From a virus (Duplodnaviria; Caudoviricetes): a stretch of 64,000 nucleotides of DNA. Both the position numbers and the translations under genes were made by a program. Below are positions 1 through 36,792 of the stretch, in pieces; position 1 is the first letter of the stretch; every line of letters begins with the position of its first letter. Where the stretch lies: the IMG/VR virus record IMGVR_UViG_3300020577_006613, positions 36,329 through 100,328 of that record. One strand, given 5' to 3'. The notes under the pieces are model-generated. The model saw only the letters and a program-made list of their open reading frames with translations, did no database searches and had not been told where the DNA came from.

Positions 1-468
1 GGCGACGGTAGCCCTACCTATCACTTTGCTTCTGTAGTTGATGACATTCAGTTTGGTATCAACTTTGTCATTCGAGGCAAGGACCATACAACGAATACTG
101 CTCGCCAAGTGGCTCTGTATAGTTGTTTGAAGTTTGTTTTGCATGACTACAACTACAGTTTGCCTCGTTATGCTCATATTGGTCTTATCCGCAAGGATGG
201 AGCAAAGCTTTCAAAAAGAGACGGCGCAGCAAGTATGCTCTCCTACAGAGAGAAGGGCTACGATTCTGACGCTATGCTTAACTTCATGGCTAGGCTTGGC
301 TGGGGACCAACTGTTGATGATAAAACAACAACATTGCTTCCAAGAGAGAAGATGTTGCAGCTTTTCCTGTCTGGCGGAAAGATGAAGAATTCTGATGCCA
401 ATATGGACATGGCTAAGCTTGACTCTTTTGACAAGAAGTACAAAGGAAGAAAAAGAGTTCAAACATGA
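1..468 (+). CDS. Glutamyl-tRNA synthetase-like catalytic domain (5' partial, lacks anticodon-binding domain; GluRS/GluQ family)
   Basis: Frame open from base 1: DGSPTYHFASVVDD..FVIRGKDH..NT, KLSKR (KMSKS), LNFMARLGW. Stop TGA overlaps next ATG. Confidence 0.85.
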   Translation, partial: GDGSPTYHFASVVDDIQFGINFVIRGKDHTTNTARQVALYSCLKFVLHDYNYSLPRYAHIGLIRKDGAKLSKRDGAASMLSYREKGYDSDAMLNFMARLGWGPTVDDKTTTLLPREKMLQLFLSGGKMKNSDANMDMAKLDSFDKKYKGRKRVQT

Positions 469-713
469 AAAAGCAAGAACTTCTTAGATTGCTAGGAGAG
501 TTGGCAGACGAAGCAAAAGGCTTTGGTGTATATGAACAATACAGCGAAGCTGGTGATTCTTTGTTAGCCTCTTCTGACCGAGTTTATGAGCTAGCAGAAG
601 AAATTGTTATGCTTGTAACAGGCGAGAAACCAACAAAGAAAGACCTTGAGAAAGTATTGGCCGTCAGCGTTGGCGAAAAAGGATTGTACGATAGTGATTC
701 CGAAGAAGAATAG
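465..713 (+). CDS. hypothetical protein
   Basis: ATGA-coupled to upstream gene. Confidence 0.7.
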   Translation: MKKQELLRLLGELADEAKGFGVYEQYSEAGDSLLASSDRVYELAEEIVMLVTGEKPTKKDLEKVLAVSVGEKGLYDSDSEEE

Positions 714-739
714 AACAATCTAGCCGATATGGTAGAACT

Positions 740-813
740 GCTCCTGTGGTATAACTGGATGTGCCTTCGCCTTCTAAGCGAAAGTTATGAGAGTTCGAGT
801 CTCTCCGGGAGTG
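740..813 (+). tRNA. tRNA-Arg(UCU)
   Basis: Acceptor GCTCCTG/CGGGAGT; anticodon arm TTCGC-CTTCTAA-GCGAA; T arm GAGAG-TTCGAGT-CTCTC; no encoded CCA. Confidence 0.9.
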
Positions 814-818
814 CTTAA

Positions 819-995
819 GTGGATATTGCTTACCCTATAACCTTGGTTGCTATTATCCTTGTCTTCATGCGAAGAGATAGGTATGATGGTATTTGCAGAA
901 AACACGGATGTAGTCTGAAGATTGAACCTGGATCTGAATACAGTTACCAGTATTGCGAAATATGTGAAGAAGAGACTCGTAAAGAACGCCTATAG
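819..995 (+). CDS. small membrane-anchored Cys-containing protein (58 aa, below track cutoff)
   Basis: GTG..TAG: N-terminal hydrophobic stretch, CRKHGC and CEIC. Confidence 0.5.
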   Translation: MDIAYPITLVAIILVFMRRDRYDGICRKHGCSLKIEPGSEYSYQYCEICEEETRKERL

Positions 996-1028
996 TTTGG
1001 GCGTTCTTTTCATTTGGAGAAAGAGTAA

Positions 1029-1241
1029 ATGAAAAGGCCCGATCTTTCAAGCAGAGCAATTCAGGACAATGTTGGCGAGAACTATTTGAAGGTCAAAAAG
1101 AAGATGGAAGAAGCTGGTCTTTCAGTTTCTTGCGCAGAAGAAAAAGGAAATACCACTACAACCAACTCCAGGGGTAGTGATGTAGAGATTCGCTATGATA
1201 GGTACAATGGCGAGATCATAAGGATTTGGAGATCAGGATAA
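1029..1241 (+). CDS. hypothetical protein
   Basis: GGAGA upstream; fills gap. Confidence 0.6.
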   Translation: MKRPDLSSRAIQDNVGENYLKVKKKMEEAGLSVSCAEEKGNTTTTNSRGSDVEIRYDRYNGEIIRIWRSG

Positions 1242-1246
1242 CTGGT

Positions 1247-1459
1247 ATGGCAAGTTTCATGGTTTACGAAAAGATCACGAAGAAACAACTCAAGCAAGTC
1301 ACAAAAGACACAATAAAGGGCATCAAAAAGTGGTTTACCGACAACCCTAAGCGTAAGATATGTAACGCTCAGTGGGTCTATGGCGAAATGTTCAAGGTTC
1401 GCCGTAACTATATTGAGGAAGATGTCAACGAAATGTCAGGTAAAACAGATACAAAGTGA
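1247..1459 (+). CDS. hypothetical basic protein
   Basis: ATG at 1247 after AGGA. Confidence 0.6.
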   Translation: MASFMVYEKITKKQLKQVTKDTIKGIKKWFTDNPKRKICNAQWVYGEMFKVRRNYIEEDVNEMSGKTDTK

Positions 1460-1463
1460 TTAG

Positions 1464-2819
1464 ATGGACACTAACCGAGTATACAACAACGCCAATCTTG
1501 AAAAGAAGCGCCGGAAGAAACTTCAAGAAGAAGCGGCTGCGAGTAGCCTCACAAAGTCTCGTCAACAGTTCCAGCCCAAGCACAACAGGATTGACATTGC
1601 ATACGATGAATCAGTAAATCCGCCCGAAGAAACCAAGAAGTCTTGGAGGCACACAAAAGATAAGCTTGTTGAACTCTTTGATTCAGTTTCAGGTAACGAT
1701 AAAGCCTATCTTCTTCGGCTGCTGAAGGTTGTTGAAAAAGAAACCGACTTCTTCGAAGACGAACGCTACTGTCTCAAGTTCATTGAGGGTTGTCGTGAAC
1801 TCGCCCGATGGGGCGATTATTGGATTCGTCAACCCGAAGATTGGGTAAACAAGACGCACAACGTTGAAAGACAGTTCCTTGGCCTTGTCAATCACCTGCT
1901 TGCTAAGTACAAAGTGCCTGCCTTCATGCACAAGTGCTTTTACGCGAACAATCAAGTAAACCGCAAGCACCAAGAGTGGTTCATGCATCTCGGAAGCGGT
2001 CAGAACATCAGGAATGCCAACGGTCTTCCTTTTCCACTTACGAAGATGATGGCGCATCACTTCACTCAAACTCCTGAAAACTTCTCTGTTCAGGAAGCCT
2101 TTACTTTTGCTCGCATTCGCTCTATTGGAGGTTCCAAGGGGCTTATTGAAGCATGGCTTGGTAGCCGCATGGCTAATACTCACTCGAACTCCGAGTTCTG
2201 GGATTCGGTACTTCGCTTCTTCATTGACAACCCTATGCTCGACCTTAATCAGGTTGGCCCTATTATTGACTACCTCTACAATCAAAAGTTCGTTGATAAC
2301 ATGGAACTCACTCAGGATGGTCAAAGAATTAATCACGGCCCTCCGCAGCCCTTCTTATCCATGAAGGGTCGTAATCCTGAAGTTCTTCTTGATCAGGTTG
2401 AGAAGTGGCACACTCAAACAGCAAAGCTCAAGAAGAGAGGAGCTTTCGTTCAATGGAAGCCTTGCGGTATCGACGGAGCGCGTTTTGAGGAAGGCGCTGG
2501 CCCTGGCAAGAAGGCTTTCATCATTACTGAACTTCTTAATTCCAGCGAACTCAAGGAAGAAGGCAGAGAAATGAGTCACTGCGTTGGCTCCTACTCTGAT
2601 TCTTGCTCTTCTGGTCGCTGCGCTGTATTCTCTTTGCGTCAGGTTGAAGGCGACGGCATTGGCCGCAAGGCAACCATCTCTATCAACTTCACCCCGAGTA
2701 AAGTCTTGAATGAAGCTCGCGGCAAGAGAAATGATGTTCTTTCGCAGAACATTTCTCGTCTTGTTCGTTCTTGGGCAAATGCAAGGTCTATTACAATCTC
2801 ATCTTGGGCGAGAATCTAA
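1464..2819 (+). CDS. PcfJ-like domain protein
   Basis: C-terminal LKEEGREMSHCVGSY...EARGKRN motif. Confidence 0.75.
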   Translation: MDTNRVYNNANLEKKRRKKLQEEAAASSLTKSRQQFQPKHNRIDIAYDESVNPPEETKKSWRHTKDKLVELFDSVSGNDKAYLLRLLKVVEKETDFFEDERYCLKFIEGCRELARWGDYWIRQPEDWVNKTHNVERQFLGLVNHLLAKYKVPAFMHKCFYANNQVNRKHQEWFMHLGSGQNIRNANGLPFPLTKMMAHHFTQTPENFSVQEAFTFARIRSIGGSKGLIEAWLGSRMANTHSNSEFWDSVLRFFIDNPMLDLNQVGPIIDYLYNQKFVDNMELTQDGQRINHGPPQPFLSMKGRNPEVLLDQVEKWHTQTAKLKKRGAFVQWKPCGIDGARFEEGAGPGKKAFIITELLNSSELKEEGREMSHCVGSYSDSCSSGRCAVFSLRQVEGDGIGRKATISINFTPSKVLNEARGKRNDVLSQNISRLVRSWANARSITISSWARI

Positions 2820-3419
2820 ATGCACTGGCGAGAATGGCATCCTGAATTATCATCTCAAAAGACCCTAAAAGAGGTTCTGTCTGAGATGCCAAGAGTTGCT
2901 CCTGACAAGATTCCCTGGCAAGTAAGGTTGCTTGAGAATCCTGAAAGTTCGGTAGCTTTTCCTGGCGCAATATCTCTTTTCAGGCACGACTGCATTCATG
3001 CCATTCTTTGTGCTTCTTTTCATCCATTAGATGAAGCCTTTGTTATTGGCTTCACTATGGGCAGCGATAAGCGTATGACAAAGAGGCTTGCAAGATTTTT
3101 CATGTGGCTCACAACTTGGTTTTATCCCAAGAAGTATAGATTCAAAAAGCAAGACCTTTTTCAGTTTGCTAAAGGGTTAGCTTTTGCAAGAAGAAGTCAG
3201 GTTACGAATCTTGCTGATTTTCGGTTTGAGGATTATCAGGATTGTACCCTTCTTCAACTCAGACAAACTCTTGGTATAAATTGGCTTGACAATGACCAAG
3301 AATACCGTCAATGGTCTAAAAGATGGGGACTCTACCAGTTCTGCATAAACGATGAATGCAGGTTTGACTGTTGGCTTCGAGCAAAAGCCGAGTCTCAAGA
3401 AAGCACAAATGGCGGCTAG
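2820..3419 (+). CDS. Coq4-like HDxxH metal-binding protein
   Basis: HDCIH-x11-E (RHDCIHAILCASFHPLDEAFVIGF). Confidence 0.5.
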   Translation: MHWREWHPELSSQKTLKEVLSEMPRVAPDKIPWQVRLLENPESSVAFPGAISLFRHDCIHAILCASFHPLDEAFVIGFTMGSDKRMTKRLARFFMWLTTWFYPKKYRFKKQDLFQFAKGLAFARRSQVTNLADFRFEDYQDCTLLQLRQTLGINWLDNDQEYRQWSKRWGLYQFCINDECRFDCWLRAKAESQESTNGG

Positions 3420-3448
3420 ACTTTCAACTCAAAGCCTAGAATACCGTC

Positions 3449-3949
3449 ATGCTAGACCTTCTCCTCAAAGCTGAAGCCGAACTTCCGCAACTCCTATTGG
3501 AGGGTGGATGGCGCAATGTTCATGTCATTTACGACAAGCCTCATGTCGAAAGATTGTGGCGTCAATGGGGAGAAAACCGCATAAGCCTACATGTGATTCA
3601 TCCATGCGATGAATCAGAATCTTTCTTTCATCCTCATCCTTGGCCTTCTGCTATGAGGGTCTTGAGCGGTGAGTATGCCATGAAAGTTGGTTTTGGAGAG
3701 GGACTGGTAACGCCTCCAACGGCATCAACTCTTGTTCTTTCTCCTGGCAGCGTTTATGAAATGACTCACAAAGACGCATGGCATTCTGTGATACCGAAAA
3801 CAGTATGTTGGACCGTCATGGTTTCTGGTAAGCCTTGGGAAAGAGAAATGCCTCAAGAACCCAAGGAAAAGCAGCCTTCGCTGGATATTGACAGGATCTA
3901 TGAGGTTTTGTCTTTCTTCCAGCAAAAGTACCCGTTAGTAGGGGGATAA
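3449..3949 (+). CDS. cupin-fold protein
   Basis: HPHPWPS..VLSGEY and later WHSV metal ligands. Confidence 0.65.
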   Translation: MLDLLLKAEAELPQLLLEGGWRNVHVIYDKPHVERLWRQWGENRISLHVIHPCDESESFFHPHPWPSAMRVLSGEYAMKVGFGEGLVTPPTASTLVLSPGSVYEMTHKDAWHSVIPKTVCWTVMVSGKPWEREMPQEPKEKQPSLDIDRIYEVLSFFQQKYPLVGG

Positions 3950-3950
3950 A

Positions 3951-4145
3951 ATGGAATCTTGCTGCGATATGATGAAAGAACAACTTGAGAGTAAGTGTGA
4001 AAAACACCCTCGCAAAGTCGATTGTCCCGATGTAGTTGTTATTGAAACCTCAAAGGGGTTGGCCCTTCCCATAAGGGATGGTGGAGATAGCTTTCTCGTC
4101 ATAAACTTCTGTCCTTGGTGCGCAAAACCTGTCTCCAAGAACTAA
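3951..4145 (+). CDS. small Cys-rich protein (DUF6980-like)
   Basis: CC..M...C.KH...DCPD...LPIRDGG.S...INFCPWC. Confidence 0.7.
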   Translation: MESCCDMMKEQLESKCEKHPRKVDCPDVVVIETSKGLALPIRDGGDSFLVINFCPWCAKPVSKN

Positions 4146-4149
4146 TATT

Positions 4150-4172
4150 GTCCTCGTAGCTCAATGGATAGA
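4150..4172 (+). pseudogene. 5' fragment of disrupted tRNA-Arg
   Basis: GTCCTCG-TAGCTCAATGGATAGA (acceptor strand plus most of D arm); pairs with CGAGGAC at 4696-4702. Confidence 0.85.
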
Positions 4173-4664
4173 AATTTGCCCGCTTAGCTCAGTTGGATAG
4201 AGCAGATGATTTCTAATCATCAGGTCAGGGGTTCGAATCCCTTAGCGGGCGCTTTGGATAGAAAAAGGATTTCTAAGCGTTTCTTTGTATTCATCTCTAT
4301 GGAGGTGGATTATGAAGAAATGCACAAGGTGCCAGTTAGAAAAGAAAGATTCAGAGTTCTACGAAAAAAGACCAGACAGAAAACAATCGCTTTGTAAGCC
4401 TTGTTTCAATGACTATTGTGTTGAAAGATGGATTCAACGAAAAAAAGACGCTGTTGCATATAAGGGTGGAAAATGCAAAATTTGCGGCTACAACAAGAAC
4501 TACGCGGCTCTTGAATTTCATCATCGAGATTCATCTACGAAAGATTTCGAATGGGTAAAACTTAGGCTCTACAAATGGGATAGAGTTCTTGAAGAACTGG
4601 ATAAATGCGATTTGCTTTGCAGTAACTGCCATGTTGAATTTCATCATCCACAACAGTCTATAAG
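4173..4664 (+). mobile_element. HNH homing cassette carrying a replacement tRNA-Arg, inserted in a tRNA-Arg gene
   Basis: Flanked by complementary halves of a different tRNA; contains intact tRNA plus HNH gene. Confidence 0.75.
4178..4251 (+). tRNA. tRNA-Arg(UCU)
   Basis: GCCCGCT/AGCGGGC acceptor, GATGA-TTTCTAA-TCATC anticodon arm, GGTTCGAATCC. Confidence 0.95.
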
Positions 4665-4668
4665 CTAA
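4312..4668 (+). CDS. HNH homing endonuclease with N-terminal Zn finger
   Basis: CTRC/CKPC finger, GGKCKICGY..ALEFHHRD..KCDLLCSNCH; GGAGGT RBS. Confidence 0.9.
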   Translation: MKKCTRCQLEKKDSEFYEKRPDRKQSLCKPCFNDYCVERWIQRKKDAVAYKGGKCKICGYNKNYAALEFHHRDSSTKDFEWVKLRLYKWDRVLEELDKCDLLCSNCHVEFHHPQQSIS

Positions 4669-4703
4669 GCGGCAGGTTACTGGTTCGAGTCCAGTCGAGG
4701 ACG
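4665..4703 (+). pseudogene. 3' fragment of disrupted tRNA-Arg
   Basis: CTAA-GCGGC-AGGTT-ACTGG-TTCGAGT-CCAGT-CGAGGAC-G. Confidence 0.85.
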
Positions 4704-4722
4704 TTTGTAAAAGGAACAAAGA

Positions 4723-4899
4723 ATGAAGTACATTTGCCTGATTTGTGGTGTTCTGTTGATCGCTCTTGCTCTTCTTTCTTGGATTTTCTACGGTCTAAAG
4801 AGTGGAGATCAAGGCGCAGGCTACGTTTTCGTGGGCATTGCTGGCGCTGTTATTGCTGGTTGGGGTGTTTCTATTTACGAAAAAGAAATGAAGAGATAA
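4723..4899 (+). CDS. small 2-TM membrane protein (58 aa)
   Basis: AAGGA RBS; MKYICLICGVLLIALALLSWIFY... Confidence 0.65.
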   Translation: MKYICLICGVLLIALALLSWIFYGLKSGDQGAGYVFVGIAGAVIAGWGVSIYEKEMKR

Positions 4900-4901
4900 T
4901 C

Positions 4902-5192
4902 ATGGACACACAAGACTTTGCTCGTTTTATGCTTCGCCCTATTGAGTGGGCCAAAACTCAGTACGCAGAGGCTTTTTGCCTCTTCGGTTTGATGGTTTTT
5001 ATCGGCGTACTGTGGGGAACAATGTTCCTGGCTTTCGGTCTGCCGATTGTCTTTTGGATTCTTGCTGGTATAGGCTTTGTTGGACTGATTTTGTTCCTCG
5101 TAACTCTTGTTCTCTTCGCTATGGAAGAGAAGCGAAAGGAACGAGAAGTTCTTGAACGCAGAAAGAAGAACGATGCATCTAAGCGAACTTGA
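4902..5192 (+). CDS. membrane protein
   Basis: ATG 4902 (MDTQDF); long hydrophobic core. Confidence 0.65.
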   Translation: MDTQDFARFMLRPIEWAKTQYAEAFCLFGLMVFIGVLWGTMFLAFGLPIVFWILAGIGFVGLILFLVTLVLFAMEEKRKEREVLERRKKNDASKRT

Positions 5193-6636
5193 ACAGGTAA
5201 GAAAGGCGCGTCTCGATAAGATTCGAGAGCTTAATGTTGATCCGTATGGATGCGCCATTCAGGGTGTTGAAAAGATCGCAAGCCTTGTGGACAATTTTAG
5301 AGTTGGCGAGCCTCTTGCTCCCAATCCTGAAAGCCTTTTCTATTCAACTCCTCGCAGAGCGCAGGGTCGCATTGTTCTCCGCAGAGACAATGGTGGCCTA
5401 ATCTGGTTCAAGATCAGAGATGACTCTGGCGAGATTCAGGTTGCTTTTAGCAAGAAGTCTGCAAGCGAACCAGAAAACTTTGCTCTTGCAAAGCTTACCG
5501 ATCTTGGCGATATCATCGCCGTTGACGGCCCTATTCGCCGTACTCAAACCGGCGAAATCACTATTTGGGCAAGCAGGATTTATCTTGCATGCAAGAGCCT
5601 TACGCATCCTCCCGATAAGGTAGAAGGATTGCAAGATGTAGAGATTAGGTATCGCCAACGATACCTTGATATGGCCTTTAACAGCGACTTTACTCGCCGT
5701 TTGCAGGACAGATCAAGAATCATTTCTCTCTTGCGCAAGGCCTTTGAGAGCCGCAGATACATTGAAGTTGAAACTCCCATGCTGCACCCCATTGCTGGTG
5801 GTGCAGCGGCGCGGCCATTTGCAACGCATCTCAATGCTCTTGATATCCCATTGTTTATGAGAATCGCTCCTGAACTCTATCTCAAGAGATTGATTGTCGG
5901 CGGCATGTCAAGGGTTTTCGAGATCAACCGTAACTTCAGAAATGAAGGCGTTGACGCAACGCATAATCCTGAGTTTACTGCGCTCGAAGCCTACGGAATC
6001 AACGAGACTGCTCAAAGCCTTATGATGATGGTTGAGGAAATCATTAAGGAAGTTGTTTTCTCCATTGACAATACTCCTCATGACCACCAGGGTATTTTCA
6101 AGTTCGGAGAGCATCTGGTTGATTTCAACCAGCCTTTTAGAGTTGTTTCTTTCAAGGAACTCTTCCAAAGAGGCGTTAGCAGAGACATTCTCCAAGAAAC
6201 TGACTTTATCAAGGCTAATAAGCTTTTCGAAGAGTTTTGTGAGCCTTTGATTGATCCGAATGTTCCAACATTCGTTTATGGCTATCCATCAGCCATTTCG
6301 CCTTTGACAAAGACGATTGCAGGAGCGGAAGTTCTTTCTCAGCGAGCAGACCTTTTCATTGGCGGCATGGAAATCGGAACCATCTATACGGAACAGAACG
6401 ATCCGCAGGTTCAGTTTGATGTCTTCAATCAACAGCTTTCTGATGACGAAGAATCAACTCATCGCACAATGGATACCGACTTTGTTGAAGCGTTGAAGGT
6501 TGGTATGCCTCCAACTGGCGGGTTGGGTATCGGGGTTGACCGACTTGTTATGCTTTTGACTGGACAGACCAGCGTAAGAGATGTCATTGCCTTCCCGTTC
6601 ATGCGACCGCTTGAAGTTCCGCAAAATCAAGGCTAA
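5173..6636 (+). CDS. lysS: lysyl-tRNA synthetase, class II
   Basis: OB anticodon domain, YRQRYLD, GGAAARPF, RIAPELYLKRL, FRNEG, HNPEFT, GMPPTGGLGIGVDRL. Confidence 0.97.
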   Translation: MHLSELEQVRKARLDKIRELNVDPYGCAIQGVEKIASLVDNFRVGEPLAPNPESLFYSTPRRAQGRIVLRRDNGGLIWFKIRDDSGEIQVAFSKKSASEPENFALAKLTDLGDIIAVDGPIRRTQTGEITIWASRIYLACKSLTHPPDKVEGLQDVEIRYRQRYLDMAFNSDFTRRLQDRSRIISLLRKAFESRRYIEVETPMLHPIAGGAAARPFATHLNALDIPLFMRIAPELYLKRLIVGGMSRVFEINRNFRNEGVDATHNPEFTALEAYGINETAQSLMMMVEEIIKEVVFSIDNTPHDHQGIFKFGEHLVDFNQPFRVVSFKELFQRGVSRDILQETDFIKANKLFEEFCEPLIDPNVPTFVYGYPSAISPLTKTIAGAEVLSQRADLFIGGMEIGTIYTEQNDPQVQFDVFNQQLSDDEESTHRTMDTDFVEALKVGMPPTGGLGIGVDRLVMLLTGQTSVRDVIAFPFMRPLEVPQNQG

Positions 6637-6686
6637 ACTCGCTGTCCTTAGACAAGGCTAGACTTTCCGAAAGAAAGAAGAGAGTA

Positions 6687-7697
6687 ATGAGCAGCACTAT
6701 TGTTTCAACTCGCAGAATTGATCAGGTTTCTTCGCACCCTAATGCTGAGAAGCTTGAACTTGCCATCGTTGGTGGGTGGCAGTGCTGCGTACAAAAGGGT
6801 AAGTACAAGTCTGGTGACTTGATTACCTACATCCCGCCCGATTCGGTTCTTCCTGTTGCCTTGTCTGACTCTCTCGGAGTCACTAAGTTTCTAAGCAACG
6901 GTCGTATCATCCCTATCCGTCTGCGCAATGAAGCGTCTTTCGGGTTGGTTATCGATCCCGTTGGCAACGAAGGCGACAACGTTGCTGATCAGCTTGGTAT
7001 TACCAAGTATCAACCTCCTGTTGACCCGAACGACAAGGAAGCAGAGGCAAGCAACCCCTTCTTTACTACTTATACCGACATTGAGAATCTTCGCAACTTC
7101 ACTGATGTCTTTCAGGATGGAGAAGAAGTTGTAGTTACCGAGAAGATTCATGGCAAGAACTCTCGTCTTGGGTACATTCTCAATGATGATGGAGTCTGGC
7201 AGCGACTTGCTGGTGGTCGTACTGTTCAGAGAAAGAACACTCCGGGATCTGCGCATTGGTATCCCTGGTCTTTGCCTCAGATGAACCTTCTTGCTGGGGC
7301 TATTCTTGCCGATCCAAAGGTTGCTCGCCAGATTGTTATGTTTGGCGAAATCTTTGGCAATCAGAAGAAAATGAAGTACGGTCTTCCTGGCGTACTTGGT
7401 TATCGCATGTTTGATCTGTTTACTGATGGTTCCTACTGGAACTACGATAACATGCATGACCTTGCGACTCAGTGCGGAGTTGAAACCGTTCCCGTTCTTT
7501 ACCGTGGTCCATACTCTTTGGCTAAGATCGTTGAGCTTAGCAAAGGCAAGTCAACTATTCCTGGCGCTGATCATATTCGTGAAGGCGTGGTTGTTCGTCC
7601 AGTTGTTGAACGATTGAATCCCAAGGTTGGTCGGGTTATTTTGAAGTACGTTTCCGACGACTATCTTTGCGGCGACTTCGACGCTTCTGGCGAGTAA
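6687..7697 (+). CDS. ATP-dependent RNA ligase with N-terminal tRNA-binding OB fold (DRB0094-type)
   Basis: HPNAEKLE N-domain; motif I TEKIHG; FGEIFG; FD; REGVVV; ILKYVS. Confidence 0.9.
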   Translation: MSSTIVSTRRIDQVSSHPNAEKLELAIVGGWQCCVQKGKYKSGDLITYIPPDSVLPVALSDSLGVTKFLSNGRIIPIRLRNEASFGLVIDPVGNEGDNVADQLGITKYQPPVDPNDKEAEASNPFFTTYTDIENLRNFTDVFQDGEEVVVTEKIHGKNSRLGYILNDDGVWQRLAGGRTVQRKNTPGSAHWYPWSLPQMNLLAGAILADPKVARQIVMFGEIFGNQKKMKYGLPGVLGYRMFDLFTDGSYWNYDNMHDLATQCGVETVPVLYRGPYSLAKIVELSKGKSTIPGADHIREGVVVRPVVERLNPKVGRVILKYVSDDYLCGDFDASGE

Positions 7698-7748
7698 GGC
7701 CAAGGCTAGACTTTCCATCGCAAAGCAAAAGCAACGAAAGGCTCTATC

Positions 7749-9332
7749 ATGACAAACGGAATTGCTGGTCTTCTGAATCTTGCTCGTTTCTCTCGGATGC
7801 GTCATCTTCAGCTTTGCGTTGGTTCTGCAACCGACAGCTACAAGATGACTCACTGGAAGATTTACCCTGATGGTCTTTCTTCCATGTCCTCTTACCTGGA
7901 AGCTCGTTCTGCTTCTGACTTCGCAGACGAAACAGTGTTCTTCGGTTTGCAGTATTTCATCAAGCGATTCCTGATTGGTGAAGTTATTACGCTTCGAGAC
8001 CTGCCCCGTCTCAAGGCTTTCTGCAAGAATCACTTCTACGGCGTTGAAGGCCTCTTTAATGAAGAGGGATGGCGATACATCATCAGTCATCACAAGGGTC
8101 GTTTGCCGGTAAGCATTCGGGCGGTTGCTGAAGGAACGGTTGTTCCTGTTGGTAATGCTCTCATGGTTATCAAGGAAACCGATCCGAAGTGCGCTTGGCT
8201 GACCAACTTCCTTGAAACCCTGCTTGTCGAGGTTTGGAATCCCATCACCGTAGCGTCTCTTTCTCGCGCTATGAAGAAGACGCAGTACGAATTCATGAAC
8301 AAGACAATGGATAGCGATGAACTTCTTCGCATCCTGATGCCTTCCAGAGTTCACGACTTTGGTTATCGTGGCGTTTCTTCGCCCGAAACCGCCGGTCTCT
8401 CTGGCGCTGCCCACCTTGTTAACTTTGTTGGAACCGATACGATTGCCGCAATCGACCTGATCGATCAGTTCTACCGAGGCAACGAGTTCAATGAACTGTT
8501 TGATCAGGATCTGACGGGCGAGTTTGACGAAAACGCTTCTTATGAGCGTTGGGATGCCTATTACAAGGCAAACATGCCTGGTTTCAGCATTCCTGCTACC
8601 GAACACTCGCAGATGACGCTTGGCGGCGAACTTGGCGAAAGAGACATTCTTGAGAACTACATCAGGAAGTTCCCCTCTGGCTTTATTGCCTGCGTTATCG
8701 ACTCGTTCGATACGTTCAACTTCATCAACAGCATTTCTGGTGGCGACCTCAAGGCTGAGGTTCTTGGTCGAGACGGTGTTCTTGTTCACCGTCCTGACTC
8801 TGGCGATCCTCCGAAGATGGTTGTTGATGTTCTCAATGCCCTTGGAATTAGGTTTGGTTATCGCACCAACGGCAAGGGCTACAAGGTTCTGAATGACAAG
8901 GTTCGCGTTATTCAGGGCGACGGAGTGAACTATCACTCTCACCGCAAGATTCTTGAAGCCGTTGTTGCTGCTGGCTGGTCTGTTGAAAACCTTGCCTTTG
9001 GTTCTGGCGGCGCTCTGTTGCAGAAGGTGAACCGCGATACCTTTAGCTTTGCATTCAAGTGCAGCTACGCCGTTGTTGACGGCGCTCCTCGGGCAGTATT
9101 CAAGAAGCCCAAGACTGATCCTCGTAAGAACAGCAAGCGCGGCGAACTCGCTCTGGTTATTTACAACACCAACTACATTACTGTTCCTCTTGAAGAGGCC
9201 AACAACTACCCAAGCGGAGATATGTTGAAGGAAGTTTTCCGTAACGGAGAACTCCTGATTGAGTACGATTTCTCCGATATCAGAGCGAGGGCCGAACTCC
9301 CTGAGCTTATGGCCGCTGCAAGTGTAAACTGA
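7749..9332 (+). CDS. nadV: nicotinamide phosphoribosyltransferase (NAMPT)
   Basis: TDSYK.TH, VHDFGYRGVSS, SIPATEHS, RPDSGDP, IQGDG, FGSGGALLQ. Confidence 0.95.
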   Translation: MTNGIAGLLNLARFSRMRHLQLCVGSATDSYKMTHWKIYPDGLSSMSSYLEARSASDFADETVFFGLQYFIKRFLIGEVITLRDLPRLKAFCKNHFYGVEGLFNEEGWRYIISHHKGRLPVSIRAVAEGTVVPVGNALMVIKETDPKCAWLTNFLETLLVEVWNPITVASLSRAMKKTQYEFMNKTMDSDELLRILMPSRVHDFGYRGVSSPETAGLSGAAHLVNFVGTDTIAAIDLIDQFYRGNEFNELFDQDLTGEFDENASYERWDAYYKANMPGFSIPATEHSQMTLGGELGERDILENYIRKFPSGFIACVIDSFDTFNFINSISGGDLKAEVLGRDGVLVHRPDSGDPPKMVVDVLNALGIRFGYRTNGKGYKVLNDKVRVIQGDGVNYHSHRKILEAVVAAGWSVENLAFGSGGALLQKVNRDTFSFAFKCSYAVVDGAPRAVFKKPKTDPRKNSKRGELALVIYNTNYITVPLEEANNYPSGDMLKEVFRNGELLIEYDFSDIRARAELPELMAAASVN

Positions 9333-16649: not shown

Positions 16650-16771
16650 GCGTCTGTAGTGTAATGGTAGCACACTAAAACATCCTGACCACTAACTTAC
16701 CGAACAGGTCGACCGGAAAGGGTTATCTCTATTACCAAGAGGTAGTTTGGGTTCGAATCCCAACGGGCGCT
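16650..16771 (+). ncRNA. tRNA-like Y RNA C (YrlA-type, permuted Ro module inserted in tRNA-Gly-like cloverleaf)
   Basis: GCGTCTG/CGGGCGC-T acceptor, D arm GTGT-AATGGTA-GCAC, T arm TTGGG-TTCGAAT-CCCAA, ~50-nt insert CC-ACTAACTT-ACC-GAACA-GGT-CGACC-GG. Confidence 0.8.
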
Positions 16772-32282: not shown

Positions 32283-32528
32283 ATGCTTGGGTTCCGAAAA
32301 TTCTTTAGCAGAGCAATGGCAACTGTATCTAGCCTAAGAGTCTACATTCCCAAAAATCCACGATATAAGGTCAAAAGAGCATGGTGTTCCATAACAGACA
32401 CAGCTTCTGGCGATGAGTCTGACATAGAACTTGCGATTGAGATTGAAGAGAAAATGAGCAGAATAAAAATCTGTAGAATAACAACTAGCTCCAACCAGAT
32501 CGTTGTTAGCCTTAAGGTGGAAAAATGA
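32283..32528 (+). CDS. hypothetical protein
   Basis: Coupled to next gene. Confidence 0.55.
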   Translation: MLGFRKFFSRAMATVSSLRVYIPKNPRYKVKRAWCSITDTASGDESDIELAIEIEEKMSRIKICRITTSSNQIVVSLKVEK

Positions 32529-33460
32529 GCAACATCATCCTCATTGTTGGCTATCAAGCGTCTGGTAAATCAACGCTCTCTCAAACACTTATCAATCAAG
32601 GCTACATTCATATCAACAGAGACAAAGAGGGTGGTTCTATTGCCGGTCTTGTTCCTCTCGTTGAGGCTGCTATCAAAAGCGGCAAGAATGTAGTCCTTGA
32701 CAACACCTTCCCTACCAAAGCTGGCAGGAAGATGTTCATTGACCTTGCTCATAAGCACAAGGCAAGCATTACTTGCTATTGGCTCAATACGAGCATTGAA
32801 GATGCGCAGTTCAACGCTTGCTCTCGACTCGTAAAGATGTTTGGCTCATTGCCGAGCAATAACGATATCAAGAAGTCTAAACATCCCAATGTCTTTCCTG
32901 CTGCTGCGCTCTTTGGATACCGCAAAGAATTTGAGAAACCAACGACGCAGGAAGGTTTTGATAAGGTTGAGGTTATTGAATTCGCAAGAGTCATAGACCC
33001 GACCTATAACAAGAAGGCCTTGCTTCTTGACTTTGACGGTACTTTGAGAGACACGAAAAGCGGCGCAAAATTTCCAACAGACCCGAACGACATTTTCATC
33101 CTTCCTGGCAGAAAAGAACTTCTTCAAGCCAAGAAGAAAGAGGGTTACATACTGCTTGGAGTAAGCAATCAAAGCGGAGTAGAAAAGGGCGATCTTACAA
33201 TGGAGCAGGCAAAAGCTTGCTTTGATAAGACAATCGAACTTCTTGGAGTTGATATTGATGTTTCGTTCTGTCCTCACAGAGTACCGCCCATTAGTTGCTA
33301 TTGTCGCAAACCGATGCCCGGACTTCCGGTTCAATTCATTGAAAAATACAAACTTAATCCATCTCTTTGCATTCTTGTAGGGGATATGACTACAGATAAA
33401 ACTTGTGCAGCAAGAGCAGGAATGCAATTTGTTTCTGCTGATGAATTTTTCAAAGGATAA
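32525..33460 (+). CDS. polynucleotide 5'-kinase/3'-phosphatase (PNKP)
   Basis: GYQASGKST, INRD, LDNT; HAD DFDGTL, SNQSG, CRKP.PG, VGD..TD. Confidence 0.9.
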   Translation: MSNIILIVGYQASGKSTLSQTLINQGYIHINRDKEGGSIAGLVPLVEAAIKSGKNVVLDNTFPTKAGRKMFIDLAHKHKASITCYWLNTSIEDAQFNACSRLVKMFGSLPSNNDIKKSKHPNVFPAAALFGYRKEFEKPTTQEGFDKVEVIEFARVIDPTYNKKALLLDFDGTLRDTKSGAKFPTDPNDIFILPGRKELLQAKKKEGYILLGVSNQSGVEKGDLTMEQAKACFDKTIELLGVDIDVSFCPHRVPPISCYCRKPMPGLPVQFIEKYKLNPSLCILVGDMTTDKTCAARAGMQFVSADEFFKG

Positions 33461-33514: not shown

Positions 33515-34018
33515 ATGAAATGCAACAGATGCAAGGCAGAAAAACCAGAGTCCGAATTTGTTTCAGGTTCTAAAAGATGCTCTAAATGCCGAGTTTATCT
33601 TGCGAAATACTACAAGAAAAATAGAAGAGCGTCCATTGAAAGAGCAACTAAGAGCCAAAATAAAGATAGAGACAGGACCAACGCCTATAAACGCAGCCTC
33701 ATTCGAAAAAATCCTGTAAACTATATGTTTGGACAAGTTAAAAGTAGGGCCAAAAAGTTTGGAATAGAATTCGATATTGAAAAATCGGACATTCAAATTC
33801 CTGATATATGTCCTGTTCTTGGATTAAGACTAGAAATAGGAAATATCAAGTGTCATTCTAGTTCTCCAACTCTTGACCGTATTGATTCCTCAAAGGGCTA
33901 TGTAAAAGGCAATGTTCATGTTATATCGCATAAAGCCAACACAATTAAGAGCAATGCTTCTCTTGAAGATTTGCAAAAAGTTGTTGATTTCCTGCGAGCC
34001 ATGTCGTTGCGGCTTTAG
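33515..34018 (+). CDS. HNH homing endonuclease
   Basis: CNRC/CSKC finger; CPVLG...SPTLDRIDSSKGY.KGNV.VIS.KAN.IK; AT-rich. Confidence 0.9.
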   Translation: MKCNRCKAEKPESEFVSGSKRCSKCRVYLAKYYKKNRRASIERATKSQNKDRDRTNAYKRSLIRKNPVNYMFGQVKSRAKKFGIEFDIEKSDIQIPDICPVLGLRLEIGNIKCHSSSPTLDRIDSSKGYVKGNVHVISHKANTIKSNASLEDLQKVVDFLRAMSLRL

Positions 34019-34046
34019 GTTTGCTGATGCTGATGAGTTCTTTGGG
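34005..34046 (+). pseudogene. displaced original 3' end of PNKP
   Basis: Translates RCGFRFADADEFFG vs current C-terminus RAGMQFVSADEFFK. Confidence 0.75.
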
Positions 34047-36194: not shown

Positions 36195-36792
36195 GGGTCC
36201 AAACGGCGACTTTGGAAAGCCATGTATTGCTTTCTATAAGTACGATGGTAGCAACTTGCGCTTTGAGTGGAGTCCTAAGAAGGGCTGGAACAAGTTTGGC
36301 ACCAGAACCAGACTCTTCGATAAGTCAGATCCGGTCTTCGGCTCTGCTGTTGACCTTTTCATGGCAACCCAAGCGGAAGGCATTGAACGAGTCATTCGAG
36401 ACACGAAAGAGTTTCGTAACAACGAGCGAGTAACCGCTTATTGCGAGTTTTTTGGTCCTAAATCGTTCGCTGGCATTCACGACCTAGAAATCCCCAACGA
36501 GCCAATGGAACTCGTTCTTTTTGACATAAACCTTCATAAGAAGGGTATTCTTGGCCCAAGGGAATTTGTCAATCACTTCGGTCATCTCAAAACCGCTCAG
36601 GTTATCTATGAGGGCAACTTCAATCAGACGCTAATCGACGCTGTTCGTAATAGAACTCTTCCTGTTTGGGAAGGCGTCATTGCCAAGGGCGGCAACGGGC
36701 ACGATCTCTGGATGCGCAAGATTAAGTCGAACGATTACCTTGAAAAGTTGCGAGCAGTCTTTAGGGATGGTTGGGAAAAGTACGCAGAGTAA
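36172..36792 (+). CDS. compact ATP-dependent RNA ligase (Rnl2-like adenylyltransferase domain)
   Basis: YPSI, motif I KYDGSN, CEFFG, LFDI, EGVIAK, RKIK. Confidence 0.8.
   Translation: MKEYPSIEGPNGDFGKPCIAFYKYDGSNLRFEWSPKKGWNKFGTRTRLFDKSDPVFGSAVDLFMATQAEGIERVIRDTKEFRNNERVTAYCEFFGPKSFAGIHDLEIPNEPMELVLFDINLHKKGILGPREFVNHFGHLKTAQVIYEGNFNQTLIDAVRNRTLPVWEGVIAKGGNGHDLWMRKIKSNDYLEKLRAVFRDGWEKYAE

Follow-up and report, generated by a model that had tools for sequence, protein, structure and literature searches.

What becomes of a phage tRNA gene when a nuclease gene comes to lie inside it? To our knowledge, homing endonuclease genes are thought to persist in conserved genes only by way of intron or intein removal, and otherwise to lie between genes. 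We analyse here a stretch of 64,000 nucleotides (nt) of a tailed-phage genome (the window; positions 36,329 to 100,328 of the IMG/VR virus record IMGVR_UViG_3300020577_006613), in which an HNH endonuclease gene and an intact tRNA-Arg(UCU) gene stand between the two pieces of another, broken tRNA-Arg(UCU) gene. Our reading, to which we give a probability of about 0.8, is that the insert is a mobile, non-splicing homing cassette, made up of a whole tRNA-Arg(UCU) gene and a free-standing HNH gene, that was inserted into the resident tRNA-Arg(UCU) gene. Such a cassette would be a variant of intronless homing, and full-text literature searches returned no described cassette of nuclease and spare tRNA nested in a tRNA gene.

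A resident tRNA-Arg gene in two pieces

The features of the locus are as follows; the last of them lies outside the cassette and is given for context.

4150..4172, + strand: 5' piece of the resident tRNA-Arg(UCU), tRNA positions 1-23, sequence read directly
4173..4664, + strand: inserted cassette of 492 bases, in the place of the 11 bases GCAGCCGCCTT (tRNA positions 24-34)
4173-4177: spacer AATTT between the 5' piece and the carried tRNA
4178..4251, + strand: carried intact tRNA-Arg(UCU) (ARAGORN, tct; Rfam RF00005)
4259..4275, + strand: conserved hairpin TAGAA-N7-TTCTA, 17 nt, in the HNH 5' leader
4301..4307, + strand: ribosome-binding site GGAGGTG, 4 nt 5' of the HNH ATG, read directly
4312..4668, + strand: HNH (His-Me finger) endonuclease gene, 118 amino acids, ATG at 4312, TAA at 4666-4668; phrog_2255
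4665..4703, + strand: 3' piece of the resident tRNA-Arg(UCU), tRNA positions 35-73, sequence read directly
740..813, + strand: further intact tRNA-Arg(UCU) (ARAGORN; Rfam, 46.3 bits)

The 5' piece (GTCCTCG-TA-GCTC-AATGGATA-GA) comprises the acceptor 5' strand GTCCTCG, U8-A9, the D stem GCTC, the D loop and, from the start of the D-stem 3' strand, GA, and its start (25 nt) is also found in intact viral tRNA-Arg genes, for example at locus L029. The 3' piece (CTAA-GCGGC-AGGTT-ACTGG-TTCGAGT-CCAGT-CGAGGAC-G), for which an exact search of viral contigs gave no match, holds CUAA, the anticodon-stem 3' strand GCGGC, the variable loop, the T arm, the acceptor 3' strand CGAGGAC and the discriminator G. 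A first-pass annotation made from the letters had noticed that the two pieces have complementary acceptor strands, that an intact, differently sequenced tRNA-Arg(UCU) and an HNH gene lie between them, and that the 3' piece starts within the anticodon loop and lends its TAA to the HNH gene as a stop codon. Each of these observations stands: the acceptor strands pair at 7/7 positions, the intervening genes occupy 4178-4251 and 4312-4668, and the stop codon at 4666-4668 is U36-A37-A38 of the split tRNA. Absent from the window are tRNA positions 24-34, which comprise the end of the D stem, the whole anticodon-stem 5' strand and the start of the loop, and the two pieces are thus unable to make a decoding tRNA. 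ARAGORN, run with introns allowed, did not join the two halves.

The carried tRNA scores 70.8 bits against RF00005 (E 2.6e-14; threshold 29) and has the acceptor stem GCCCGCU/AGCGGGC, the anticodon stem GAUGA/UCAUC and the loop UUUCUAA. The identity elements of tRNA-Arg are A20 and C35. The carried gene has both, together with the anticodon UCU, which by sequence fits a tRNA-Arg(UCU). AGA is the arginine codon that the phage uses most (27.5%), which makes a working tRNA-Arg(UCU) important to it.

Natural empty and filled alleles

Twenty public sequencing runs hold part of 3700-5200, and the Logan contigs of four of them (X1, X2, X4 and X6) were aligned to the window. An empty allele is present in X6, from wastewater, on one contig of 3,085 nt (depth 11.8) whose flanks are ~99% identical to ours, with 3 differences on 3700-4172 and 10 on 4665-5200. 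At its joint from 4172 to 4665 the 492 bases of 4173-4664 are skipped, and the 11 letters GCAGCCGCCTT stand in their place. The 5' piece, GCAGCCGCCTT and the 3' piece together form a 73-nt gene that ARAGORN calls as tRNA-Arg(tct), with a perfect cloverleaf, the anticodon stem GCCGC/GCGGC and the loop CTTCTAA.

This contig settles several points that the first-pass annotation had raised. The uninterrupted allele GTCCTCG...GCCGCCT(T/C)CTAAGCGGC...CGAGGACG that it predicted for related phages is present there; the missing stretch, put at about 11 nt, is exactly 11 nt, GCAGCCGCCTT in the natural allele; and the two halves, whose belonging to separate genes would on its account have refuted the idea, are continuous. 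Hence both pieces are one gene, split by a replacement of 11 bases with 492. Since the empty allele holds 11 letters that are absent from the filled form, the filled form is the derived one, and the empty allele cannot have come from it by simple deletion. Alignment of the two alleles also bears out the earlier statement that the carried tRNA has the anticodon stem GATGA/TCATC in place of GCCGC/GCGGC; carried and resident genes are near-identical up to position 26, and most of their differences lie in and after the anticodon stem, which is compatible with the immunity that the annotation had proposed for the carried copy.

Filled contigs came from X1, probably the source sample, and from the riverine runs X2 and X4. 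Those of X1 (7,211 nt) and X2 (961 nt) are identical to the window and that of X4 (1,036 nt) is a variant, and the filled layout is thus unbroken in contigs of three runs from two studies. The presence of empty (X6) and filled (X1, X2 and X4) alleles at one locus in near-identical phages, a pattern that recurs in Kuravirus (see below), indicates that the cassette is mobile and that its insertion is recent. Tracing the layout to a chimeric join at repeated tRNA sequence during assembly is an account whose probability we regard as negligible: tRNA-like repeats do invite mis-joins, and many foreign tRNA contigs stack on 4183-4245, but both junctions are spanned by single contigs in each of the three filled runs, and two relatives from two other samples (L002 and L003) keep the same order. 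Some minor joints (4172 to 4259, 4204 to 4674 and others) were considered and set aside; their sides are at most 48 letters long, the contigs are ~80-90% alike where listed, and they probably represent genes of other organisms.

A probable tract of exchange with its edges at the tRNA halves

The variant X4 carries the cassette in a diverged background. It differs from the window at only three sites in 4150-4703 (4467, 4506 and 4662; 3/554), as against 16/450 in the upstream flank, all 16 within 3808-4133. Downstream, two contigs continue from 4674, one with 34 differences (34/220), all of them from 4704 on (4704-4923), and the other with 0. Divergence thus amounts to ~0.5% in halves plus cassette, 3.6% upstream and ~15% downstream (Fisher p for cassette plus halves versus flanks, 6e-4 upstream and 1e-16 downstream), and the edges of the exchanged tract are the outer ends of the split tRNA halves. 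This low divergence within a diverged background fits a recent lateral transfer, and the breakpoints are placed as we would expect if homing into a diverged genome had used the tRNA sequence as homology arms.

Recurrence of nested cassettes in other phages

A search of viral contigs with the class II lysyl-tRNA synthetase (LysRS) encoded next to the locus returned only L002 and L003, at 64-66% identity, from two other samples; the same search of metagenome contigs returned nothing closer than 52%, mostly cellular sequences, and by that route no empty site. Both relatives have the same cassette order at the syntenic place, with halves that are complementary at 7/7 positions and yet of different sequence, GTCCCAG/CTGGGAC. 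Gene order around the locus is conserved in L002, where a 5' piece starting GTCCCAG is followed by an intact tRNA-Arg(tct), the same leader, an HNH gene product 59% identical to that of the window, and a 3' piece ending CTGGGAC-G. The tRNA carried by L002 is identical to the split tRNA of the window over its first 16 nt and matches its 3' part at 35/39 positions. It is therefore a homolog of the gene that is broken in the window: a kind of gene that L002 carries as cargo has fallen victim in the window phage.

Among 90 loci with HNH relatives in viral contigs, the distance to a tRNA gene is at most 300 nt in 66 and at most 100 nt in 50. The nearest tRNA is Arg(tct) in 26 of the 66, placed in tandem, convergent or divergent orientation to the HNH gene, and 77% of the nearest tRNAs have an anticodon ending in T, a feature of 33% of the remaining tRNAs of these loci (p 2e-10). 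Complementary orphan halves make up 17/145 same-locus candidate pairs, as opposed to 0.29% of cross-locus pairs, and a second detector found 36 nested pairs, versus 2 with shuffled acceptor strands; with complementary halves so far above the controls, the pairing is more than chance. The search that the first-pass annotation had proposed, for other HNH and tRNA cassettes flanked by tRNA halves, was rewarded with eight further clear cases beside the window, with the HNH gene and a carried tRNA inside. Five of them (L005, L006, L040, L042 and L045) have Arg halves enclosing Arg(tct) and HNH, as does L002; L105 is a non-Arg case, with a CAU-loop 3' piece around tRNA-Met(cat) and HNH; and the eighth is the Kuravirus L019. 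In these nested cases the junction always lies between the D arm and the anticodon loop, and all readable split anticodon loops match the anticodon of the carried tRNA. In the window, L002, L005, L105 and Pseudomonas phage PAK_P4, positions 36-38 of the tRNA downstream form the TAA on which the HNH open reading frame (ORF) ends.

The family also occurs in cultured phages. It is present in 412 phage records, and both PAK_P4 and a Felixounavirus have it in their tRNA clusters. In the Escherichia coli Kuravirus Ptacy1479 the order on the tRNA strand is a 5' piece (positions 1 to ~28), an antisense HNH gene whose product is 55% identical to that of the window, the phage's own tRNA-Arg(tct), a spacer and a 3' piece. 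At the same spot, between the same upstream sequences, phiEco32 and WFI101126 have a single intact tRNA-Arg(tct), and phage Paul has a different tRNA-Arg and a different HNH gene. The 3' piece of Ptacy1479 is identical to the WFI101126 gene over 48 nt, and the upstream flank matches at 55/60 positions, while the sequence downstream of the tRNA is unrelated, so that the tRNA end is again a mosaic boundary. The first-pass annotation had taken the insert for a mobile homing element, and mobility is supported at the sequence level by presence and absence in near-identical phages, by conservation of the cassette relative to its flanks and by recurrence in independent phages.

Two side observations concern relatives of these genes. 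In L005:1379-2106, a homolog of the window tRNA at 740-813 is itself split (GGTCCCG.../...CGGGACT), by ~700 nt without a tRNA and without a relative of the window HNH. In PAK_P4 (L017:1873-1949), the HNH ORF crosses the 5' half of an intact annotated tRNA-Lys(UUU), which ARAGORN does not call, and its stop codon is the TAA in the anticodon loop of that tRNA.

Could the HNH gene be a mere passenger? Its tRNA and it may have come together by ordinary recombination between conserved tRNA sequences of co-infecting phages, with the tRNA genes as portable homology and with the nuclease acting elsewhere in trans, as T4 SegB does, or being inactive here. The tract boundaries in the window population and in Kuravirus lie at the ends of conserved tRNA sequence, as homology-limited recombination also predicts, and SegB cuts many tRNA genes far from its own gene (PMC2330249; PMC13096335). 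However, homologous tRNA exchange would yield an intact chimeric tRNA and not 11 bases swapped for 492 foreign ones, independent cases have their junctions within one small stretch (positions ~23-34), and the HNH gene is almost always found between the halves, with its catalytic residues conserved. We therefore consider a passenger HNH gene unlikely.

The halves might also be kept for a function of their RNA, either as a tRNA-like handle on the transcript, closed by acceptor strands and T arm, through which RNase P and 3' processing enzymes would process or stabilise the HNH message, or as a split tRNA. Both predicted folds of 4140-4715, minimum-free-energy and centroid, pair the acceptor strands (z = -3.25), and the halves look undecayed in the window and in L002, where G19/C56 are jointly replaced by A19/U56. 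Yet any fold would be closed by such a 7-bp G+C-rich helix, and an insertion this recent needs no selection to remain undecayed. No decoding tRNA could result from pieces that lack the anticodon-stem 5' strand and the D-stem end, and the halves appear dispensable, as L004 is without a detected 3' piece and other cassettes vary in half length. An RNA function of the halves is thus very improbable.

Under the third alternative, the insert would be the decayed remains of a group I intron that carried an endonuclease ORF and sat in the tRNA-Arg anticodon loop. Some HNH relatives do adjoin phage tRNA genes whose anticodon loop holds a real group I intron (L044:2852-3134, L051, L073:2113-2411 and L092; RF00028, 59-77 bits), and in L055 the same split layout is seen with no Rfam match. 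The layout of these intron-bearing tRNAs resembles collaborative homing, and an intron origin of the HNH family is possible. The window locus itself cannot splice: RF00028 finds nothing in 1-9000, even at E <= 1, the insert contains a whole tRNA gene, 11 exon bases (positions 24-34) are lost, and introns usually sit further 3' than this junction. An Rfam search of 1-9000 for introns and other RNAs found only two tRNAs. The earlier judgement that this is not a spliceable intron was thus correct, and a decayed intron is an exceedingly remote explanation of the locus.

The HNH gene and its leader

By sequence, the ORF qualifies as a member of the HNH (His-Me finger) endonuclease family. It matches the 'HNH endonuclease' family phrog_2255 at E 4.1e-33, and across 12 HNH relatives C55, C58, H70, H71, C103, N105, C106 and H107 are invariant, so that the HNH motif HH...N...H is kept, along with the Cys pairs C55/C58 and C103/C106. 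An AlphaFold2 model (pLDDT 90.2) has strand-strand-helix elements. Foldseek comparison of this model with the PDB gave nothing at E <= 0.001 and only weak matches (best E 0.1), nearly all of them to HNH nucleases, including Cap5, PacI, T4 endonuclease VII, T5 SciA, the HNH domain of Cas9 and McrA. The protein had no Pfam match at E <= 0.01, no NCBIfam match and nothing significant in a sequence-profile search of the PDB. With its metal-binding and catalytic residues all conserved and a good ribosome-binding site, the enzyme looks active.

Between the carried tRNA and the HNH ATG lies a leader of 60 nt that contains the ribosome-binding site. In an alignment of the four closest cassettes (A3; window, L002, L004 and L005), GAGGT is invariant and the block TAGAAnnAGGATTTCTAA is unchanged, and more distant cassettes have a hairpin TGGATAGA...TCTATCCA at the same position of the leader. 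The leader hairpin may be an operator or a processing site. It is shaped like an anticodon arm and, together with TGGATAGA at 4255-4262, imitates a middle piece of a tRNA. We rejected the idea that 4255-4280, with its TGGATAGA...CTAAGCG repeats, is such a piece, left by two nested insertions with target duplications; the conserved leader hairpin explains it better. A scan of 3800-5000 found no promoter-like site and one terminator-like site (3890-3912), which is no more than shuffled sequence gives.

How the cassette would spread

In a mixed infection, the cassette-bearing genome would supply the HNH enzyme, which would nick or cut a naive genome's intact tRNA-Arg gene within the anticodon arm or close to it. 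The break would be resected and then repaired by recombination with the cassette-bearing genome, the two tRNA halves serving as homology arms, as exons do for a mobile intron. The insert, being unsplicable, would kill the resident gene, and the cassette would compensate with a working tRNA of the same anticodon. The carrier would presumably remain uncut, its target being destroyed and the anticodon stem of the carried tRNA being very different (GAUGA/UCAUC versus GCCGC/GCGGC). The net effect would be a drive that overwrites one tRNA-Arg allele by another. The ties of the HNH family to tRNA genes, the prevalence of anticodons ending in T and the neighbouring anticodon-loop introns all suggest that the enzyme acts in the anticodon region.

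Several considerations weigh against this proposal. Cutting of the intact allele by the HNH enzyme, and the position of the cut, are steps that we infer, and the immunity of the carried tRNA is deduced from sequence differences. The carried and the target gene have the loop and adjacent stem bases GCCTTCTAAGCT in common, in Kuravirus as in L002, and no shared rule of immunity follows from these cases. The surveyed HNH loci are mutually related, and their counts are not independent events. Matching anticodons need not reflect selection for compensation, since target specificity or homology-dependent repair could produce them by itself. The second intact tRNA-Arg(UCU) at 740-813, which has an ortholog at L002:1276-1350, may make loss of the resident gene tolerable even without the carried copy. 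In addition, the X4 haplotype is put together from short Logan contigs, with linkage across 4703 deduced from depth and a shared 30-mer.

The two anticodon arms differ in how widely they occur. That of the resident gene, GCCGC/GCGGC, has exact matches in at least 120 prokaryote genomes and in 73 viral contigs, whereas none of 185,579 prokaryote genomes has an exact match to the carried arm, and the search thereby identified no donor or host. In a test for avoidance near HNH genes, the stem GCCGC/GCGGC is found in 0/30 HNH-adjacent tRNA-Arg(tct) genes, but likewise in 0/99 baseline viral tRNA-Arg(tct)-like genes. It is conceivable, if doubtful, that the allele-swapping drive benefits the phage, in that the rare arm would escape host anticodon-arm nucleases and the HNH enzyme would spread it, with LysRS, the RNA ligase and a PNKP-like protein forming a tRNA-conflict toolkit.

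Genome context

The source record of 100 kb is estimated to be ~20% complete, which makes the virus a giant phage. The neighbourhood of the locus encodes a PcfJ-like protein, a DUF6980 protein, class II LysRS, an RNA ligase and NAMPT. LysRS, the ligase, which is of the Rnl type, and NAMPT lie directly downstream of the cassette (5203-9332), and they would fit a theme of tRNA repair or tRNA conflict. The PNKP-like gene lies ~28 kb downstream (32525-33460) and is directly followed by a second nuclease gene (33515-34018, 167 amino acids), HNH-like by sequence motif alone. A frame across the 3' end of the latter (34005-34046) translates to RCGFRFADADEFFG, resembling the PNKP C-terminus RAGMQFVSADEFFKG, and the site looks like the same logic of insertion and replacement applied to a protein gene.

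Other tRNA-related features were seen elsewhere. At 16650-16771 (+ strand), at the end of a 500-nt stretch free of ORFs and upstream of a 565-amino-acid ORF, lies a tRNA-like gene (Rfam tRNA, 40.3 bits) with 66 nt instead of the 15-nt anticodon arm; it is conserved at L002:10798-10921 and was missed by default ARAGORN. In the wider genome (C1), two adjacent tRNAs with CTA anticodons, amber suppressors, lie ~30.7 kb upstream of the window (C1:5497-5648). Genome-wide, there was no sign of TAG recoding, as ORFs gain no more length when TAG is taken for a sense codon than when TAA is. At ~1.6 kb upstream of the window (C1:34650-34718) lies the 3' part of a tRNA by itself, whose loop is CTTTCAA (Glu-UUC type) and whose T arm is good; it is not called as a tRNA and may be another remnant.

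Comparison with known homing systems

The closest comparison is with SegB of T4 and T6, a free-standing GIY-YIG homing endonuclease in a tRNA gene cluster (PMC2330249; PMC13096335). Like the HNH gene of the cassette, that of SegB is free-standing among phage tRNA genes; SegB reads conserved tRNA-gene sequence and drives the preferential inheritance of its own gene and of neighbouring tRNA genes, which are carried along, as we propose for the cassette. It differs in belonging to another nuclease family, in having its gene between tRNA genes and in targeting a T-arm motif, with no split target; nor has a spare of the same anticodon nested in the broken gene been described for it. The F-Tfl enzymes of phage T5 are named in PMC2330249. 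They share with our nuclease the HNH type and a coding place within a phage tRNA cluster. By the description known to us, they are intergenic, and not tRNA-nested cassettes with a replacement copy.

In collaborative or intronless homing, exemplified by F-CphI beside the psbA intron of cyanophage S-PM2 (PMC6083498), by T4 mobE/I-TevIII (PMC2790892) and by SegF, cited as a further example in PMC13096335, the nuclease gene adjoins its own target, the interrupted site protects the carrier, and break repair co-converts the flanks, as we propose for the cassette. In those systems, function is kept by a self-splicing intron or by an intergenic position of the nuclease gene. In the cassette, by contrast, the target gene is destroyed and its function would be supplied by a second gene within the insert. 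Group I introns in the anticodon loops of bacterial tRNAs (reviewed in PMC3984707) occupy the same target region, the anticodon arm, but the cassette has no detected ribozyme, has lost exon bases and cannot be spliced.

Insertion of a nuclease gene into a conserved gene has precedents of another kind. The nrdA gene of phage Aeh1 is reportedly broken by a homing endonuclease gene. Conserved genes split by the insertion of a free-standing nuclease gene have been described as 'fractured genes' (PMC2677866). In fractured genes, Aeh1 nrdA among them, split inteins or the assembly of subunits keep the pieces working, whereas the pieces flanking our cassette are dead and a spare whole gene would compensate. 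Finally, nuclease genes at the boundaries of genetic exchange between phages are a general pattern in ICP1-like phages that does not involve tRNA-nested cassettes (PMC10448857); our cassette, too, marks a sharp change in divergence between related genomes.

The locus would represent a third solution for homing nucleases, namely to destroy the target and to bring a spare copy. If our reading is true, it would explain the fast turnover and diversification of phage tRNA genes, with tRNA-Arg(UCU) foremost, as well as the HNH genes scattered through phage tRNA clusters and the orphan tRNA halves found there. The natural empty and filled alleles, together with Ptacy1479 versus WFI101126 and phiEco32, make the idea testable in E. 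coli, and a nuclease family that reads tRNA-gene DNA may be of practical interest. For the phages themselves, tRNA genes would be portable landing pads that move the cassette between genomes with diverged flanks.

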